The notes below the pieces were generated by a model. The model saw only the letters and a list, made by a program, of their open reading frames with translations. It made no database searches and had not been told where the DNA came from. Shown here one piece after another: positions 16,680 to 44,559 of a stretch of DNA of 47,437 nt. Position 1 is the first letter of the stretch, and every line of letters starts with the position of its first letter. A program made the translations under genes and the position numbers. The stretch is from a virus. The stretch lies in the IMG/VR virus record IMGVR_UViG_3300028454_000165; one strand, written 5' to 3'.

Positions 16680-17489
16680 CTAAGCGTTAAGGATATATTC
16701 GCAAGCCTTTTCCGCCTGGATCGAAGCGTAAACAATCATCTTAGGATCATCTTTCAGAACGCTCAGCCAGCTCTGCAAATAAGCCACATTATTGCGAAGC
16801 GTTGTTTCGGATGATAAACCACAAGTGGATGATAAGAAACAGGATCCGATCTCGGCGACAAGCTCCTCTTTGGAATACTCTTCGTTGCCGAAAGCAGCCT
16901 TTTTGTCGCTCTTGCGATTGCACCTTGTCTCTTTTCCGGTGCTGTGTGTCAGCTCGTGGAATAAGGTGCCGTAATACTCGTTGATCCCGATAAACTGCTC
17001 GGGCTTCGGAACTACAACCAAGTCCCTGGCTAGCATATAGTAAGCCTCATTACTGGGCTTTATTTCGAGCTTAGGAGCGTCAGCGGATTCGATGTATTTT
17101 TTTACGATAGCTTCAGCACTCTCGATAAGCTCTACTTCGTTTTGTATCTCTTCAGGCTTAACCTCAACGGGCTGTGTCCAGTCGTGCTTCGGCTTTAATC
17201 CTGTAACCTGTGTAAGGATATTGAACACCCTGTAATATCTCAAAGCGAAAGTCTTTTTGTAAATCTCTTCGCCATCATCGTCAAGAACTGCCTTGCCGTT
17301 TTTATCAAGAACTTTTTTGTCCTCTACTATCCAGCCACAAACAACATGAGACTTTTCGCCCTTGATAACCTGTCCGCCATCCTTTTTGATTTGTGCGAAA
17401 GTGGCATACTCGCCAGCCTCGAAGTCAAGGAGCATTTGATTTATAAGGTCATAACGCTTCCCAGTTGAGTAGGAAAAGCAAGGAAACAT
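16680..17489 (-). CDS. ardC: ArdC-like antirestriction protein, main reading frame (ssDNA-binding region plus zincin HExxH domain)
   Basis: TGKRYDLINQMLL, FHELTHSTG (HExxH) and KEELVAEIG are typical of ArdC. The N-terminal conserved segment lies in another frame (see 17441-17602). Confidence 0.7.
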   Translation of the reverse strand: MFPCFSYSTGKRYDLINQMLLDFEAGEYATFAQIKKDGGQVIKGEKSHVVCGWIVEDKKVLDKNGKAVLDDDGEEIYKKTFALRYYRVFNILTQVTGLKPKHDWTQPVEVKPEEIQNEVELIESAEAIVKKYIESADAPKLEIKPSNEAYYMLARDLVVVPKPEQFIGINEYYGTLFHELTHSTGKETRCNRKSDKKAAFGNEEYSKEELVAEIGSCFLSSTCGLSSETTLRNNVAYLQSWLSVLKDDPKMIVYASIQAEKACEYILNA

Positions 17490-17602: not shown

Positions 17603-17637
17603 AATTGAAACCCTCCTAAGAATTTTGTTTCACCTTT

Positions 17638-17707
17638 AGCCTGTCTCATCAGTACGGGTAGGCCATCTCCCGTAGACACTCCCCGAAGTGGGGAGTGTTT
17701 CGACCTA
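17638..17707 (-). ncRNA. Candidate type II hammerhead self-cleaving ribozyme
   Basis: Minus-strand RNA reads GUC-GAA-[ACACUCCCC-ACUUC-GGGGAGUGU]-C / [UACGGG-AGAUGGCCUA-CCCGUA]-CUGAUGA-GAC. All core nucleotides, a GUC cleavage triplet and three stems are present. Confidence 0.65.
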
Positions 17708-18544
17708 TACGATTGTTAATTCCGTACCGTTGTAGCGGTAAACTGAATTGCTTAAGAAGTCCTGTTCAGCTACTTCGGTCTCGTTAATCTCACGAACCAT
17801 CGGAGCGAAAGCGGAAGCCTCGGGAGTGTCAGCGATAACGATTACCTCATGAACACTACTCGGGAAAACTATGAAAGTTTCAAGCCCCAACTTCTCGGAT
17901 ACTTCAGCGAGTAAAGCCTTATCTGTTACAATCGAAGCACCGTACAAGCCAGTCTTATTAGAGATAATCCACATCGGCACTACATCCGCACTTTTCTCGA
18001 AGTTCTCATCGAATAAGCAGTAAATCTGATTAAGATAATCAAAGATGCTTCTTACTGTCATTCCCTTGCGGTCAGCCTTTGCATTTTCCCTCAACTCTTC
18101 GAGAGTGATTCCGAGATAATCAAGGTGGTTATTGTTCAACTTAATCGTTGCATTTTCCAAGTTGCCACCCAGCTCGGTAAGGTCCAGCTCATAGATGATT
18201 GCAAGGTCAAGAAAATCAGTGTGCGGTGAGCTTTCAAGTAACTTAGTGTTACGCTCTTTACTGATAAGGACTGGTATTACATTGTCGAGAACGAAGCTCT
18301 TAGTTAATACCTTTGAGAAGTCAATGTCTAACTTCTCGGAAGTCCTAAAGAGTGATACCATCATCTCGATGTTTTCCTCTTCGCTCCTATCGTCCTGATA
18401 GTAAACGGTAGGTGATAAGTTGCTACCGTCATGGAGTACGAAAGCTCTCTTTACTACTCCGTTGTTCTTGGTAACCGTTGTCTCTTCAACTGTTACTCCA
18501 TTGCCGATAAGTTCCTCAATTCTTTTTGCGATAACTCTTTCCAT
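17705..18544 (-). CDS. DUF5688-like protein (family often found next to ArdC in Firmicutes mobile elements)
   Basis: Start trimmed to MERVIAKRIEEL, preceded by AAGGAGGA. The promoter lies inside the longer ORF-track extension. Confidence 0.5.
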   Translation of the reverse strand: MERVIAKRIEELIGNGVTVEETTVTKNNGVVKRAFVLHDGSNLSPTVYYQDDRSEEENIEMMVSLFRTSEKLDIDFSKVLTKSFVLDNVIPVLISKERNTKLLESSPHTDFLDLAIIYELDLTELGGNLENATIKLNNNHLDYLGITLEELRENAKADRKGMTVRSIFDYLNQIYCLFDENFEKSADVVPMWIISNKTGLYGASIVTDKALLAEVSEKLGLETFIVFPSSVHEVIVIADTPEASAFAPMVREINETEVAEQDFLSNSVYRYNGTELTIV

Positions 18545-18597
18545 TTGGTTATCCTCCTTGTGTGTATTGTCAACGGGTTGCCCCCCGTTGCAAGAAC

Positions 18598-18627
18598 AAT
18601 ATACAACGACGGGTAACACCCTGTCAA
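18598..18627 (-). promoter_or_regulatory. Sigma-70-type promoter of the minus-strand island
   Basis: Minus strand has TTGACA (18622-18627), an 18-nt spacer and TATATT (18598-18603), with an A/T-rich UP-like tract upstream. Confidence 0.5.
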
Positions 18628-18886
18628 GTACTTTTCTAAAATTTTTTTCAAAAAGTTTTTTGAGACAATCCGAAAAGCCATATTTATCAAGGCTTTGATG
18701 TGTGAAAAAATTCTGTAGAAAATCTGTATCAGACACAAAACACCGAGACAGGACACCTTAACAACTTATCACATACATTATTAAGAAAATAAATCCGCAT
18801 AAGTGTGCTTTGATAAGAACAAAGCAGACAGATAAAAGCCCATAGCCTGGCAATAGAAATAATTATTCTAATAGACTGACAAAGAC

Positions 18887-40898: not shown

Positions 40899-41453
40899 AT
40901 GGCCGGAGTTTTTAACGAGGCTGTCCTTACCGAAAAAGGTATAGCGTTACTTGCCAAGGCGCAGGCGGGGTTAACCACGATTACCCTTACAAAAGCCGCA
41001 TCAGGTGACGGAAGCTATACAGAGGGAGAGGACATTAGCAAGCAGACGGCGCTTAAGAGCCAGAAGCAGGAATTTAGCATCAACACTGTAATGGTCCAAA
41101 ATGTCAGCAACGTATTTGTGAAGTTTATTATCACAAATTATAAGAGCGAGACAGAATACCTTACACACGGCTATTACGTAAAAGAGATCGGATTATTCGC
41201 TACCGACCCGGACGAAGGAGAGATCCTTTATGCTATCGCCACAGCGGTAACAGATCAGTGGGATTACTTACCCGCTTACAACGACTTACTACCATCAACC
41301 ATCACTATTGAAATGCTTACCGAAGTGGCAAATGCCGACACGGTAACAATCGAAGCACCCAATAAGATGTACCTGTACGACGATACAACCGGCGACAAGT
41401 ACGTACTGGGCGTTGAGAACGGATTACTTTACTACGAGGAGGTAGAAGAATAA
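40899..41453 (+). CDS. Tail-collar / proximal tail fibre protein
   Basis: 184 aa. N-terminal GIALLAKAQAG...TKAASGDG resembles tail-collar fibre N-termini. Confidence 0.5.
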   Translation: MAGVFNEAVLTEKGIALLAKAQAGLTTITLTKAASGDGSYTEGEDISKQTALKSQKQEFSINTVMVQNVSNVFVKFIITNYKSETEYLTHGYYVKEIGLFATDPDEGEILYAIATAVTDQWDYLPAYNDLLPSTITIEMLTEVANADTVTIEAPNKMYLYDDTTGDKYVLGVENGLLYYEEVEE

Positions 41454-42749
41454 ATGAGCGATAAAATATATGTTGCGGATAAGCCTACGCTGGATTCCGT
41501 TAACGAGAAAGTATCAGCTATCCTTGCTATCGAGAAGGACGAGGATGTATACGGTTTCGTGGAGCATATGGACATACTTGATCCTGACGAGAGGATTGAA
41601 TATATCGGGCTTAACAAGAACTTTAACCCCATTACTATTACCATGGGCGGCGGCTATTCCCTGGGTGACTGGGCGACATTCCCGCTGCTGGTTAACAACA
41701 AGCCCTACATGGTTAAGAGCAGCGGTATTGTAGATTACCAGCTTTCCGAGACGAACTATTCAAAGAAAGCCGACGGAGAGACAGCATCAGATGTGGCAAA
41801 TACTTCTTACGACGGCGGTGCTTTCTCATGGTTGCAGAAGATCTACAAGAAGGAATACATTGTTGGATCAGACAGATATGTTAAGTTTTCGCTGGAGCCG
41901 AGAGATGGTTACGAGGCAGCAGGATTCATTGACGATACCAACAACGAACTTGAAGGAGTATGGATTCCGATGTTCTATGGAGCTTCCAACGGAGCTTCAC
42001 AGAATCCGAAGATGCTGACTGTCTCCGGGACACAGCCGGTACATAGCCAGACGACGGCCCAGGAGAAAACCTTAATTGATAATTTCGCCGCCCGGGGTAA
42101 ATTCTTTGGCGGAGCAATAATCAATACCATCCACGACCTGCTTCTTCTTTGGGGCAAGACATCTAATATCCAGGACAAATATGGCTATGGCAACTGCAAC
42201 GGCTATGACAGCACGTTATCTCCTACATATGGAGTGCTTGCTAATGCTATAGTGGGCGGCGGACAGTTTTACGGTACCGGCGCAGACGATAAGAAGCACT
42301 TAAATAAGATTTTGCACTCTATCGTATTAGGTAGCTATCAGCAGTGGATGCGCGATCCTTATACAGCCTGCGTAAGCGGAAAGGTATATGTAAGCAAGAA
42401 TTACAAATATGATATCTCAACACCGGCCAATACATACAAAAACACCGGTGTAGTATTTGCAGAGACATTAAGCGGCGTATATCCGCATAAATACGCAGTA
42501 GAACCCGGATTCGGAAAGATCCCCGTTGTACCATGTGAAGGAACATCAGCAACCGGCGGTTGTGACGGTTTTTGGGTAAATCCCGGTATAACGGCCGTGG
42601 CCGGTCGGTTCGGTTCTTGCTCCCTTGACCTCTTTTGCGGCACGGGCGCGTTGACTTTGAACGGCACTGCCACGGACGCGACCTGGAGCATCGGCGCCGC
42701 CGTTCTTCTCTTACCACCTGCCGGCACAACGCCTAGCGTTGCGGCGTAG
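41454..42749 (+). CDS. Distal tail fibre / receptor-binding protein; DGR target with C-terminal variable region
   Basis: 431 aa. The C-terminus GRFGSCSLDLFCGTGALTLNGTATDATWSIGAA aligns to the TR-encoded NCNNDLICGTGALNLNNTATNANWNIGAA. Confidence 0.8.
   Translation: MSDKIYVADKPTLDSVNEKVSAILAIEKDEDVYGFVEHMDILDPDERIEYIGLNKNFNPITITMGGGYSLGDWATFPLLVNNKPYMVKSSGIVDYQLSETNYSKKADGETASDVANTSYDGGAFSWLQKIYKKEYIVGSDRYVKFSLEPRDGYEAAGFIDDTNNELEGVWIPMFYGASNGASQNPKMLTVSGTQPVHSQTTAQEKTLIDNFAARGKFFGGAIINTIHDLLLLWGKTSNIQDKYGYGNCNGYDSTLSPTYGVLANAIVGGGQFYGTGADDKKHLNKILHSIVLGSYQQWMRDPYTACVSGKVYVSKNYKYDISTPANTYKNTGVVFAETLSGVYPHKYAVEPGFGKIPVVPCEGTSATGGCDGFWVNPGITAVAGRFGSCSLDLFCGTGALTLNGTATDATWSIGAAVLLLPPAGTTPSVAA
42593..42709 (+). 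repeat. DGR variable repeat (VR)
   Basis: 117 bp aligned without gaps to 42826-42942. There are 16 differences, 15 of them at TR adenines. Confidence 0.85.
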
Positions 42750-42754
42750 GGGGT

Positions 42755-42772
42755 GTGGGGGTCTTCCCCCAC
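42755..42772 (+). promoter_or_regulatory. GC-rich hairpin just 3' of VR
   Basis: GTGGGGG-tctt-CCCCCAC, a 7-bp stem with a 4-nt loop, starting 6 nt after the target stop codon. Confidence 0.6.
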
Positions 42773-42825
42773 GGTGACTTTATGTAGCGGGAAATTAACA
42801 GGGGATGAGACTGCGACACCTCCGG

Positions 42826-42942
42826 GGCCGTGGCCATTCGGTTCGGTAATTGCAACAATGACCTCATTTGCGGCACGGGCGCGTTGAATTTGAACAACAC
42901 TGCCACGAACGCGAACTGGAACATCGGCGCCGCCGTTATTCT
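42826..42942 (+). repeat. DGR template repeat (TR)
   Basis: Adenine-containing master copy. AAY codons in the VR frame. Noncoding; the ORF-track entry 42830-43069 is spurious. Confidence 0.85.
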
Positions 42943-43130
42943 ATCAATAATAGATTACAGACCAAAATGCAGATTTCATTCATATACACCGCTGGACGTT
43001 GAAATACGTCTTATCCGCCGTCTATCGGTTAGGGGAGTGGTAATTATACCGATACAGGACACACGGTAAAGCGGTCGCACCTGCCGTGTGTAGGAGATAG
43101 AAGAAAAAAATATCTTATAGGAGTAATACG
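42943..43130 (+). ncRNA. Structured TR-RT spacer (probable 3' part of the DGR template RNA)
   Basis: Hairpins GACGT-N6-ACGTC, TATCGGT-N18-ACCGATA and ACACACGG-N16-CCGTGTGT. Confidence 0.45.
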
Positions 43131-44330
43131 ATGCGCAACCAAATGATGTGGGGCCTGTATAAAGCCCACCGTGGCGCAAAGCAGTACAAATATCTGTATC
43201 AGCGTATGCTGGACCGGGATGTTATCCGCCGGGCATACAAGAAGTTACGTAAAGGCAAGACCAAAAGAAGAGAGATCATAGCCATAGACGCTAACTTCGA
43301 CGCAGAAGTTGAAGCTATGCGGGAGATGATACTTAACACAAAGCCTCCGGGTGTGGAAGTAGAACACCCGGAGTTAGCTTATAAGCCACATAAGAGAAAA
43401 CCCAAGATTATATTTGAGCATAACAAGGCAAGAAAGATATATATGCCGGAGATACATGAGCAGTGGCTACATCATATAATCGTGCTGGTTTTAGAGCCTA
43501 TTATAGTCCGCACTTCCTATCAGTTTTCTTGCGGCAGCTTCCCGAACCGGGGAGCGCACAAAGCAAAACGACAGCTTGAACGCTGGATAAGGGCGGGTAA
43601 GGGTATAAGATACTTCGCCAAGATCGACATAAGGCACTTTTATGACAGCATCCGCCTTCGGGTCCTGATAAAAGAACTCTCTATCAGGATAAAGGACGAA
43701 TGGTTTTTATATATCATAGAGCTATGCCTTAAGGGATTTAAGAAGGGAATACCATTAGGATTCTATATAAGCCAGTGGTTAGCGAACTACCTGCTTGAAC
43801 CGCTCGATTATTTTATTACGGAAACACTGGGCTTTAAGAAAATGATCCGGTACATGGACGACATTGCGTTTATGGGAGACAACAAAAAGAAACTCCATGC
43901 GGCCATTATCGAGATAAAGAAGTTTATAGGCCGGCGATTCCGATTGAAACTTAAGAGAACGTTCATAGTTGCTAAATTTATATATCACACAAAAACCGGG
44001 CGGACGATTGGCAGGAAAATAAACTACATGGGTTTTCTCTTTGACAGGGATAATACCACGGTTCGTAAATGTATAATGCTTCAAGCTACACGGCTTGCGG
44101 CAAGGTTATCCAGGAAGAAACAGAAGAACAAGCGCATTTATCATAAGCACGTATGTGCAATGGTAAGCTACATGGGCTGGTTTAACTGGACAGATTCATA
44201 TAACTGTTATCTGAAATGGATAAAGCCGTATGTGAATGTAGGGAAGCTTAAACGGATTATATCTAAATTAGACAGGAGGAAAGCAGAATATGAAAGCATG
44301 GAAAGAGGAACACTGTGCGCAGCGGCCTAA
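43131..44330 (+). CDS. DGR-type reverse transcriptase
   Basis: AKIDIRHFYDSI, GIPLGFYISQWLANYLL (SQ..AN, DGR hallmark), RYMDDIAFMGD (YxDD), NYMGFLF. Confidence 0.85.
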   Translation: MRNQMMWGLYKAHRGAKQYKYLYQRMLDRDVIRRAYKKLRKGKTKRREIIAIDANFDAEVEAMREMILNTKPPGVEVEHPELAYKPHKRKPKIIFEHNKARKIYMPEIHEQWLHHIIVLVLEPIIVRTSYQFSCGSFPNRGAHKAKRQLERWIRAGKGIRYFAKIDIRHFYDSIRLRVLIKELSIRIKDEWFLYIIELCLKGFKKGIPLGFYISQWLANYLLEPLDYFITETLGFKKMIRYMDDIAFMGDNKKKLHAAIIEIKKFIGRRFRLKLKRTFIVAKFIYHTKTGRTIGRKINYMGFLFDRDNTTVRKCIMLQATRLAARLSRKKQKNKRIYHKHVCAMVSYMGWFNWTDSYNCYLKWIKPYVNVGKLKRIISKLDRRKAEYESMERGTLCAAA

Positions 44331-44559
44331 TGAATTACAGCTTATAGCCCCGGACACCTATATCCAGAGGCGCAACATTGCGGAAGTACAGCACGAGGCT
44401 AACGAAGAGGCCGGCATTGAAGCTTATACCGACTTCAAGTGCGAAAGCAGGACTATAAGCGTATCAGAGTATGAGATGATAAAAAGTATTAATGACTATG
44501 ATGCGCAGGCGGCTATTGACGAGTACACAGAGCAGTTAGCGGAGGAGGGAGTATTATAA
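44290..44559 (+). CDS. Acidic hypothetical protein (XkdW-like position)
   Basis: 89-aa ORF overlapping the RT 3' end by 41 nt. Confidence 0.4.
   Translation: MKAWKEEHCAQRPNELQLIAPDTYIQRRNIAEVQHEANEEAGIEAYTDFKCESRTISVSEYEMIKSINDYDAQAAIDEYTEQLAEEGVL

Follow-up and report, generated by a model that had tools for sequence, protein, structure and literature searches.

The 47,437 nucleotides (nt) of the IMG/VR virus record IMGVR_UViG_3300028454_000165 (this whole stretch is referred to below as the window) carry, between positions 41,454 and 44,330, a gene for a putative tail-fiber protein, a pair of repeats, a structured RNA and a gene for a reverse transcriptase (RT). We consider it almost certain that these parts constitute a complete, accessory-free (Avd-less) diversity-generating retroelement (DGR), whose layout is target gene with variable repeat (VR), template repeat (TR), structured RNA and RT. 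The features of the locus, in window coordinates, are as follows.

41454-42749, + strand: gene for the putative DGR target, a predicted Mtd/TaqVP-like distal tail-fiber protein of 431 amino acids (aa), in which the VR corresponds to residues ~380-419
42593-42709, + strand: VR, with the mutagenized tract at 42603-42690
42691-42718, + strand: element resembling an initiation of mutagenic homing (IMH) site, that is, the invariant GC block TCGGCGCCGCC (42691-42701) followed by VR-specific sequence conserved in all VRs (GTTCTTCTCTTACCACC)
42720-42745, + strand: hairpin 1, GCCG..CAACGC-CTA-GCGTTG-CGGC, inside the last codons of the target gene, with a presumed role in homing
42755-42772, + strand: hairpin 2, GTGGGGG-TCTT-CCCCCAC (G5/C5), 6 nt after the target stop codon
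42826-42942, + strand: non-coding TR containing 26 adenines; read in the VR frame, it has 9 AAY codons
42985-43102, + strand: structured spacer RNA between TR and RT, Rfam RF03025 (RT-4 RNA), 113.7 bits versus a gathering threshold of 73.5
43131-44330, + strand: probable DGR RT, 399 aa, isoelectric point (pI) 10.2, ribosome-binding site AGGAG at 43119-43123, Pfam RVT_1

The VR and the TR were recovered by an independent repeat search as an ungapped pair of 117 nt with 86% identity and a spacing of 233, exactly where a first-pass annotation of this DNA had placed them. The two repeats differ at 16 positions, 15 of which fall at TR adenines, the TR being composed of 26 A, 33 C, 32 G and 26 T (Fisher p = 3.5e-11, table [[15,11],[1,90]]). 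Every adenine mismatch lies at codon position 1 or 2 of the frame 41454-42749, and the corresponding stretches of TR and VR are translated as N-C-N-N and S-C-S-L, N-L-N-N and T-L-N-G, and N-A-N-W-N and D-A-T-W-S, respectively. The first-pass annotation had counted roughly 26 adenines in the TR and 16 differences, had listed the same 15 adenine positions, had assigned the substitutions to the first two positions of AAY codons with these same residue strings, and had remarked that the TR appears among the open reading frames (ORFs) as a fake 79-aa one; counts, positions and translations all agree with our tabulation by TR base, and the spurious ORF (42830-43069) results from reading the TR in the VR frame and on into the spacer. 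Its reading of one position has to be amended, since the mismatch between TR 42938 and VR 42705 is a fixed difference of the kind that separates the IMH from its TR counterpart (IMH*) and not a product of mutagenesis: in that column C is found in the VRs of 72/72 related pairs, irrespective of the TR base (46 TRs have T, 19 A, 6 C and 1 G). Therefore, 14 mutagenized adenines remain. Lying at positions 1 and 2 of AAY and ATT codons, they recode about 12 residues in the C-terminal domain of the target. The lone mismatch outside the adenines (TR T42837/VR G42604, T>G) is common to the VRs of the window and of two related loci, L002 and L119, and for this reason it is inherited, and not a fresh RT error. 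No third copy of the repeat was found in the window, either with all the A positions wildcarded and 3 mismatches allowed or with 30 non-A mismatches allowed, and the wildcarded TR pattern scanned against viral contigs gave no match.

The search for related RTs retrieved 33 loci in bacterial genome assemblies, mostly from Lachnospiraceae and other Clostridia, which we regard as prophages because of the assemblies in which they were found, plus 80 viral contigs, at 56-76% identity. Among the 88 loci with sufficient upstream sequence, 87 share the layout target-VR/TR/RT, with a VR of 106-124 nt, a VR-TR gap of 95-235 nt and a TR-RT gap of 132-224 nt, and the mismatches of this census, pooled by TR base, number 1081 at A, 113 at T, 44 at C and 32 at G. 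A per-column analysis was then carried out on 72 distinct VR/TR pairs anchored on the conserved CCACC downstream of the VR, with 75 columns tabulated. Where 70 or more of the 72 pairs have A in the TR, VR mismatches are seen in 28-69% of the pairs; in columns with little or no A the figure is 0-3%, and in the GC block it is 0%. The clade-wide pattern is in agreement with the 15 of 16 mismatches at adenines in the window, and with the adenine-specific mutagenic retrohoming that had been proposed for this locus.

The comparison between closely related loci points to homing within the history of this lineage. At 96% identity, P0001, which comes from a Logan assembly, is the protein closest to the target; its locus, L002, differs from the window at 78 of 1139 nt upstream of the VR (~7%), mostly at multiples-of-three spacing. 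The two TRs differ at 0/117 positions and the two VRs at 18/117, 17 of the 18 being A-templated. Since the TR has not diverged, the flank has done so by ~7%, and the VR has turned over at 17 A-templated sites, homing should have taken place after the two lineages split. Loci L119 and L120 likewise share an identical TR and have different VRs, and 12 further groups with identical TRs contain 2-8 distinct VRs each, whose variable columns are 203/292 at A and 22/1070 at non-A. On these sequence comparisons, the clade, as well as this lineage since its split from L002, has undergone mutagenic homing.

The same alignments delimit the homed segment at its 3' end. The last mutable adenine is TR 42923; the next 11 nt (TCGGCGCCGCC, columns -23 to -13) are identical between VR and TR in all 72 pairs, and from column -12 onward the differences between VR and TR are fixed and independent of the TR base. 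Since variation stops there, the alignments show the apparent 3' boundary of homing to lie in the 11-nt GC block, with which the IMH* in the TR also starts (42924-42934). The first-pass annotation had called the invariant GC-rich 3' end IMH-like, and the block is indeed real and conserved across the 72 pairs. The arrangement is the IMH/IMH* one described for phage BPP-1, in which a GC-rich IMH at the VR is accompanied by a non-identical IMH* at the TR and by a GC-rich inverted repeat further downstream (PMC5758913); the elements of the window may have a corresponding function. Mutagenesis at T was also considered as the source of the T mismatches that recur in the relatives and was ruled out, these being fixed IMH/IMH* differences of the 3' end.

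Two hairpins lie 3' of the VR (DNA fold of 42695-42800, z = -2.6). In the slot of hairpin 1, the related loci keep a hairpin of different sequence, though the C-terminal tail of the target varies in both sequence and length; because the hairpin is kept while the tail changes, this suggests a nucleic-acid constraint on the extreme C-terminus of the target protein. Of 49 distinct loci, 46 have hairpin 2, with covariation at its closing pairs (T-A in 37 and C-G in 7 for one pair; C-G in 35, G-C in 2 and T-A in 2 for the other). It is followed by no T-run and was not called as a terminator, and its counterpart in BPP-1 is the GC-rich inverted repeat that lies 3' of the IMH.

As for the enzyme, the first-pass annotation had described an RT at 43131-44330 with DGR hallmarks (a SQ..AN motif and YMDD); both motifs are present in the ORF of 399 aa, the former as IPLGFYISQWLAN, and the patterns [ILV]PxGxxxSQxxxN and YMDD are found in 86/88 and 85/88 relatives, respectively. 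Among the PHROGs the protein matches phrog_1423 (E = 1.5e-88), and its best match among PDB structures is 8ub7_A (E = 6e-15), a 328-aa chain deposited as 'Reverse transcriptase' that, from its length, we take to be the RT of the Bordetella phage DGR (bRT). The group II intron RT GsI-IIC comes next (E = 3e-11). The aligned motif reads GIPLGFYISQWLAN in the window RT, GIPIGSLTSQLFAN in bRT and GTPQGGPLSPLLAN in GsI-IIC, that is, SQ in the first two versus SP in the group II enzyme. The window RT is strongly basic throughout and exceeds bRT by about 70 aa, having basic extensions at both termini. No DGR-specific family was among those returned by NCBIfam, and the scores of the models for group II, retron, Drt and Abi RTs remain far from their cut-offs: the highest value is that of the group II intron model TIGR04416 (93 bits versus 300), and the others are Drt3a (58 versus 200), retron St85 (43 versus 235), Drt2 (37 versus 390) and AbiA (19 versus 250). 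A retron, defense-associated (Drt) or Abi RT was rejected on these scores, and a group II intron on the TIGR04416 score together with the Rfam scan of the whole window, which finds no intron RNA. Judged from the SQ motif, YMDD and the best PDB match, the enzyme appears to belong to the DGR clade.

The spacer between TR and RT matches the RT-4 model over its full length (model positions 1-118 of 118, E = 6e-22), and RT-4 was found in the same slot in 13/13 loci of the clade tested. In an alignment of 41 spacers, 15 of 26 predicted pairs exhibit compensatory changes; the loop of one hairpin, TAAAGCGGTCGCACCTG, is nearly invariant. The single-sequence fold of the spacer is not significant (z = -1.2), the structure being seen only via covariation and Rfam. 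When these motifs were described, only RT-10, that of BPP-1, was tied to a DGR, and the other RT motifs were speculated to serve other DGRs (PMC5737381, Weinberg et al. 2017). Position and analogy suggest that RT-4 serves this clade as the RNA for RT binding and priming. A conserved motif, (T)ATAACAGGGGA, was also observed at 42797-42808 and, in most related loci, ~15-25 nt upstream of the TR; no + strand sigma-70 site was called at it, and it may be an RNA element or mark where the DGR RNA begins. The pairing of a CAGGGG motif upstream of the TR with the 5' arm of RT-4 was considered and is unsupported, as the RT-4 column varies and the motif is constant.

Searches of Pfam, NCBIfam and PDB with the target sequence gave no match, so that, besides phrog_5302 ('tail protein', E = 6e-81), which is its sole sequence-level family, only the comparison of folds is informative. 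An AlphaFold model built from a 54-sequence alignment (pLDDT 90.9, pTM 0.90) was compared with PDB using Foldseek: TaqVP chains (5vf4) were the only hits with E <= 0.001 (best E = 3e-8, probability 1.00; ~395 aligned columns, TM 0.44-0.50), and Bordetella Mtd (1yu0-1yu4) came next, weakly. Against BFVD, the model matches many phage tail-collar and tail-fiber proteins (TM up to 0.83). The C-type-lectin fold for which the first-pass annotation had proposed to look is, thus, predicted: the full model matches the DGR variable protein TaqVP and, weakly, Mtd, and the target can be assigned a C-type-lectin-type (Mtd/TvpA/TaqVP) fold on the strength of this model. The gene order of the tail region, namely, tail tube protein, Baseplate_J, Tail_P2_I, tail-collar fiber N-terminal protein and then the 431-aa target, is also the one implied by that annotation, according to which the target follows the baseplate and collar genes.

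The attribution of the locus to a DGR is, thus, based on the adenine bias, the census of the clade, the per-column pattern, the VR turnover, the RT, the RT-4 RNA, the fold and position of the target, and the literature. The checks by which the first-pass annotation could have been refuted all turned out in favor of a DGR, the VR being variable among relatives in which the TR is not, and its interpretation is essentially correct. In the mechanism that we propose, the RT would bind an RNA containing the TR and the RT-4 spacer, and this RNA would be reverse-transcribed faithfully except opposite adenines, as the substitution pattern indirectly shows. The resulting complementary DNA would then replace the VR, up to a 3' limit that lies within the GC block, the invariant part of the IMH-like element, and the GC-rich hairpins downstream of the VR would probably help in recognizing the target, by analogy with BPP-1.

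Some points weigh against this interpretation, or at least against parts of it. No Pfam Avd-family match was obtained in the 30 ORFs scanned (24 of them under 200 aa), nor did scanning the small ORFs near the RT against PHROGs reveal Avd or any other recognized accessory; because of this, the biochemical route may differ from that of the only well-studied DGR. A promoter and terminator scan of 42650-43200 gave neither a + strand promoter for a TR RNA nor a terminator. The evidence for activity consists of comparisons between lineages. Locus L119 (L119:4177-5380, target P0002, 89% identical) has an RT split by a frameshift between ...IDIRHF and Y..., which reflects either decay of this copy or a mistake in the assembly, and on account of which copies of this element can decay; the RT of L120 is intact. 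Lastly, the idea that VR diversification alters receptor binding and host range, which is most likely correct, comes from the predicted fold and from the gene position.

The absence of Avd deserves some further comment. With 116 nt between VR and TR and 188 nt between TR and RT, neither gap leaves room for a gene. The Avd accessory protein is present in 74% of DGRs, and is not universal; Architecture A (TR-RT, no accessory gene) accounts for 29% of DGRs, and a whole RT lineage (Lineage 3) is devoid of avd, for which Avd-independent homing has been suggested (PMC5758913, Wu et al. 2018). One further ORF lies at the end of the RT gene:

44290-44559, + strand: acidic ORF of 89 aa (ORF89), pI 4.4, overlapping the RT 3' end by 41 nt, phrog_20201, function unknown

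A homologue of ORF89 overlaps the RT end in 111/112 loci and also follows the 31%-identical RT of the uncultured phage MT835666. However, an XkdX gene follows this homologue almost as consistently (106/112 loci), and Lactobacillus phage LBR48 and Butyrivibrio phage Arawn share the same junction of small ORF, XkdX and lysis genes; the linkage of ORF89 to the RT is, therefore, inseparable from synteny. Its membership in the element is uncertain, and it may simply reflect phage synteny; ORF89 could be a tail gene in the XkdW position or a DGR accessory factor. There is a small chance that, in this large Avd-less clade, the role that Avd has in BPP-1 has been taken over by the RT-4 RNA and the basic extensions of the RT, possibly also with ORF89 as an undescribed accessory factor.

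Different explanations of the locus can be weighed against a functional DGR acting on a receptor-binding protein. The first is that of a relic, whose parts are still recognizable but which no longer homes in this phage, the VR differences being fossils. The frameshifted RT of a relative as close as L119 fits this idea, as does the persistence of the non-A mismatch across three lineages, which implies that at least the 5' edge of the VR is not refreshed often. Nevertheless, in the window the RT ORF is uninterrupted and has all the catalytic motifs, and TR, RT-4, IMH block and hairpins are all intact; moreover, an unchanged TR beside a ~7% diverged flank and a VR changed at 17 A-templated sites, as seen against L002, points to homing after the split, and we regard a relic as unlikely. 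The second explanation accepts a working DGR and supposes that the diversified protein is, e.g., an adhesin for mucus or environmental ligands, and not a receptor-binding protein; indeed, other Faecalibacterium phage DGRs target Hoc-like capsid decoration proteins (PMC5883640). This appears quite improbable for a gene that stands directly after those for Baseplate_J, Tail_P2_I and the tail-collar protein, whose product matches, together with the collar protein, a single tail-fiber PHROG, and whose closest folds are those of phage tail-collar and tail-fiber proteins and of Mtd/TaqVP. Finally, an ordinary tandem duplication of the gene 3' end beside an unrelated RT (group II intron, retron or defense RT) has practically nothing in its favor except that the highest NCBIfam score is that of a group II intron model, far under its cut-off, and it is refuted by the per-column analysis, the adenine bias being unlike neutral divergence, with no intron RNA, a DGR RT as the best PDB match and an arrangement that recurs in 87/88 loci.

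Concerning the genetic context of this DGR, gene content and comparison indicate that the window (47,437 nt) is a temperate phage or prophage, probably an Epona-like myophage of gut Firmicutes. Profile scans revealed genes for integration and regulation (tyrosine integrase, helix-turn-helix repressor, methylase) and for the head (gpA terminase, lambda-type portal, E-type capsid protein), and the target is followed by the RT, an XkdX protein and an amidase/GH25 endolysin; the DGR stands at the end of the tail module. The gene immediately upstream of the target is the following:

40899-41453, + strand: tail-collar fiber N-terminal protein, 184 aa, probable proximal half of the fiber, Pfam Phage_tail_fib, E = 5e-12

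Its stop codon abuts the target start (TAA immediately followed by ATG), and the tail-protein profile phrog_5302 is covered jointly by the tail-collar protein (positions 2-122) and by the target (128-546). Since the two proteins together cover a single profile, a fiber that is one protein in other phages is here, as in the Faecalibacterium phage Epona, split into two abutting ORFs. Elsewhere in the window, a type II hammerhead ribozyme (Rfam RF02276, 48.6 bits versus a gathering threshold of 37, full model) lies at 17635-17705 (- strand) and directly abuts the start of a DUF5688 ORF (17705-18736, - strand), with an ArdC-N/zincin-like ORF (16680-17489, - strand) nearby.

Both this type of element and the Avd-less architecture have been described before (the Epona DGR in 2018 and the DGR surveys), and the understanding of DGRs in general is not changed by the details reported here. 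Some of these are, perhaps, unwritten elsewhere, namely, the RT-4 assignment, the boundary in the 11-nt GC block and the covarying G5/C5 hairpin after the target stop codon. In particular, the identification of RT-4, left unassigned by its discoverers, as the TR-RT spacer RNA of this Avd-less DGR clade may be new. The locus would represent a host-range diversifier that is complete and has evidently been active of late, carried by a temperate gut phage not yet deposited, and such elements complicate the prediction of hosts as well as the assembly of viromes.

The closest described system is the DGR of FP_Epona (Eponavirus epona, MG711462), which has the same order of Baseplate_J, P2-I, tail-collar, Mtd-like target with VR, TR and RT, and which also shares the 3' part, i.e., the small ORF overlapping the RT end, XkdX and the lysis genes. 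Its own VR/TR pair spans 106 nt, with 13/13 mismatches at A, and RT-4 RNA occupies the same slot as in the window; the target was reported to be of the Mtd/FGE type and no Avd homologue was found (PMC5883640, Cornuault et al. 2018). The similarity of the two phages is, nonetheless, moderate: the nucleotide identity is ~65% over 63% of the cassette (60% for the RT and 58% for the target), the integrase is a tyrosine one in the window versus the large serine recombinase listed for Epona (PMC5883640), and the relatives of the window element are mostly prophages in assemblies of Lachnospiraceae and Clostridia, whereas Epona is a Faecalibacterium phage. With respect to the genus Eponavirus, synteny with FP_Epona is shared, together with ~65% identity over part of the cassette, and a megablast of 25 kb of the window against deposited phages returned zero matches. 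RNAs of another family were observed in the TR-RT slot of the distantly related DGRs of LBR48 and of MT835666, both of which carry Rfam RT-18 (L118:702-777 and L116:4579-4656, respectively); Arawn possesses a VR/TR pair and has no Rfam match at the gathering threshold.

The comparison with the prototype, BPP-1 (mtd-avd-TR-brt), reveals a common plan: in both, adenine-specific transfer proceeds from TR to VR into the 3' end of a tail-fiber gene, the GC-rich IMH is not identical to the IMH*, and an inverted repeat, also GC-rich, lies downstream (PMC5758913); in both, too, a structured RNA is placed between TR and RT, RT-10 in BPP-1 and RT-4 in the window (PMC5737381). Unlike BPP-1, the window lacks avd, has a VR-TR gap of only 116 nt and encodes an RT of 399 aa versus 328 aa; the target shares the Mtd-type fold weakly and resembles TaqVP more than Mtd. 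Almost the entire target aligns with TaqVP (PDB 5vf4), its best structural match, at a sequence identity of 12%. TaqVP is the target of a bacterial DGR, not a phage fiber; it is described as a DGR variable protein with a C-type-lectin fold (PMC6328139). Lastly, the avd-less DGRs of Architecture A1 and Lineage 3 (PMC5758913) possess the same TR-RT core, with an adjacent upstream target and no accessory gene. The A1 layout is exactly that of the window and of 87 related loci, and this architecture points to Lineage 3 as the group to which the element might be assigned.

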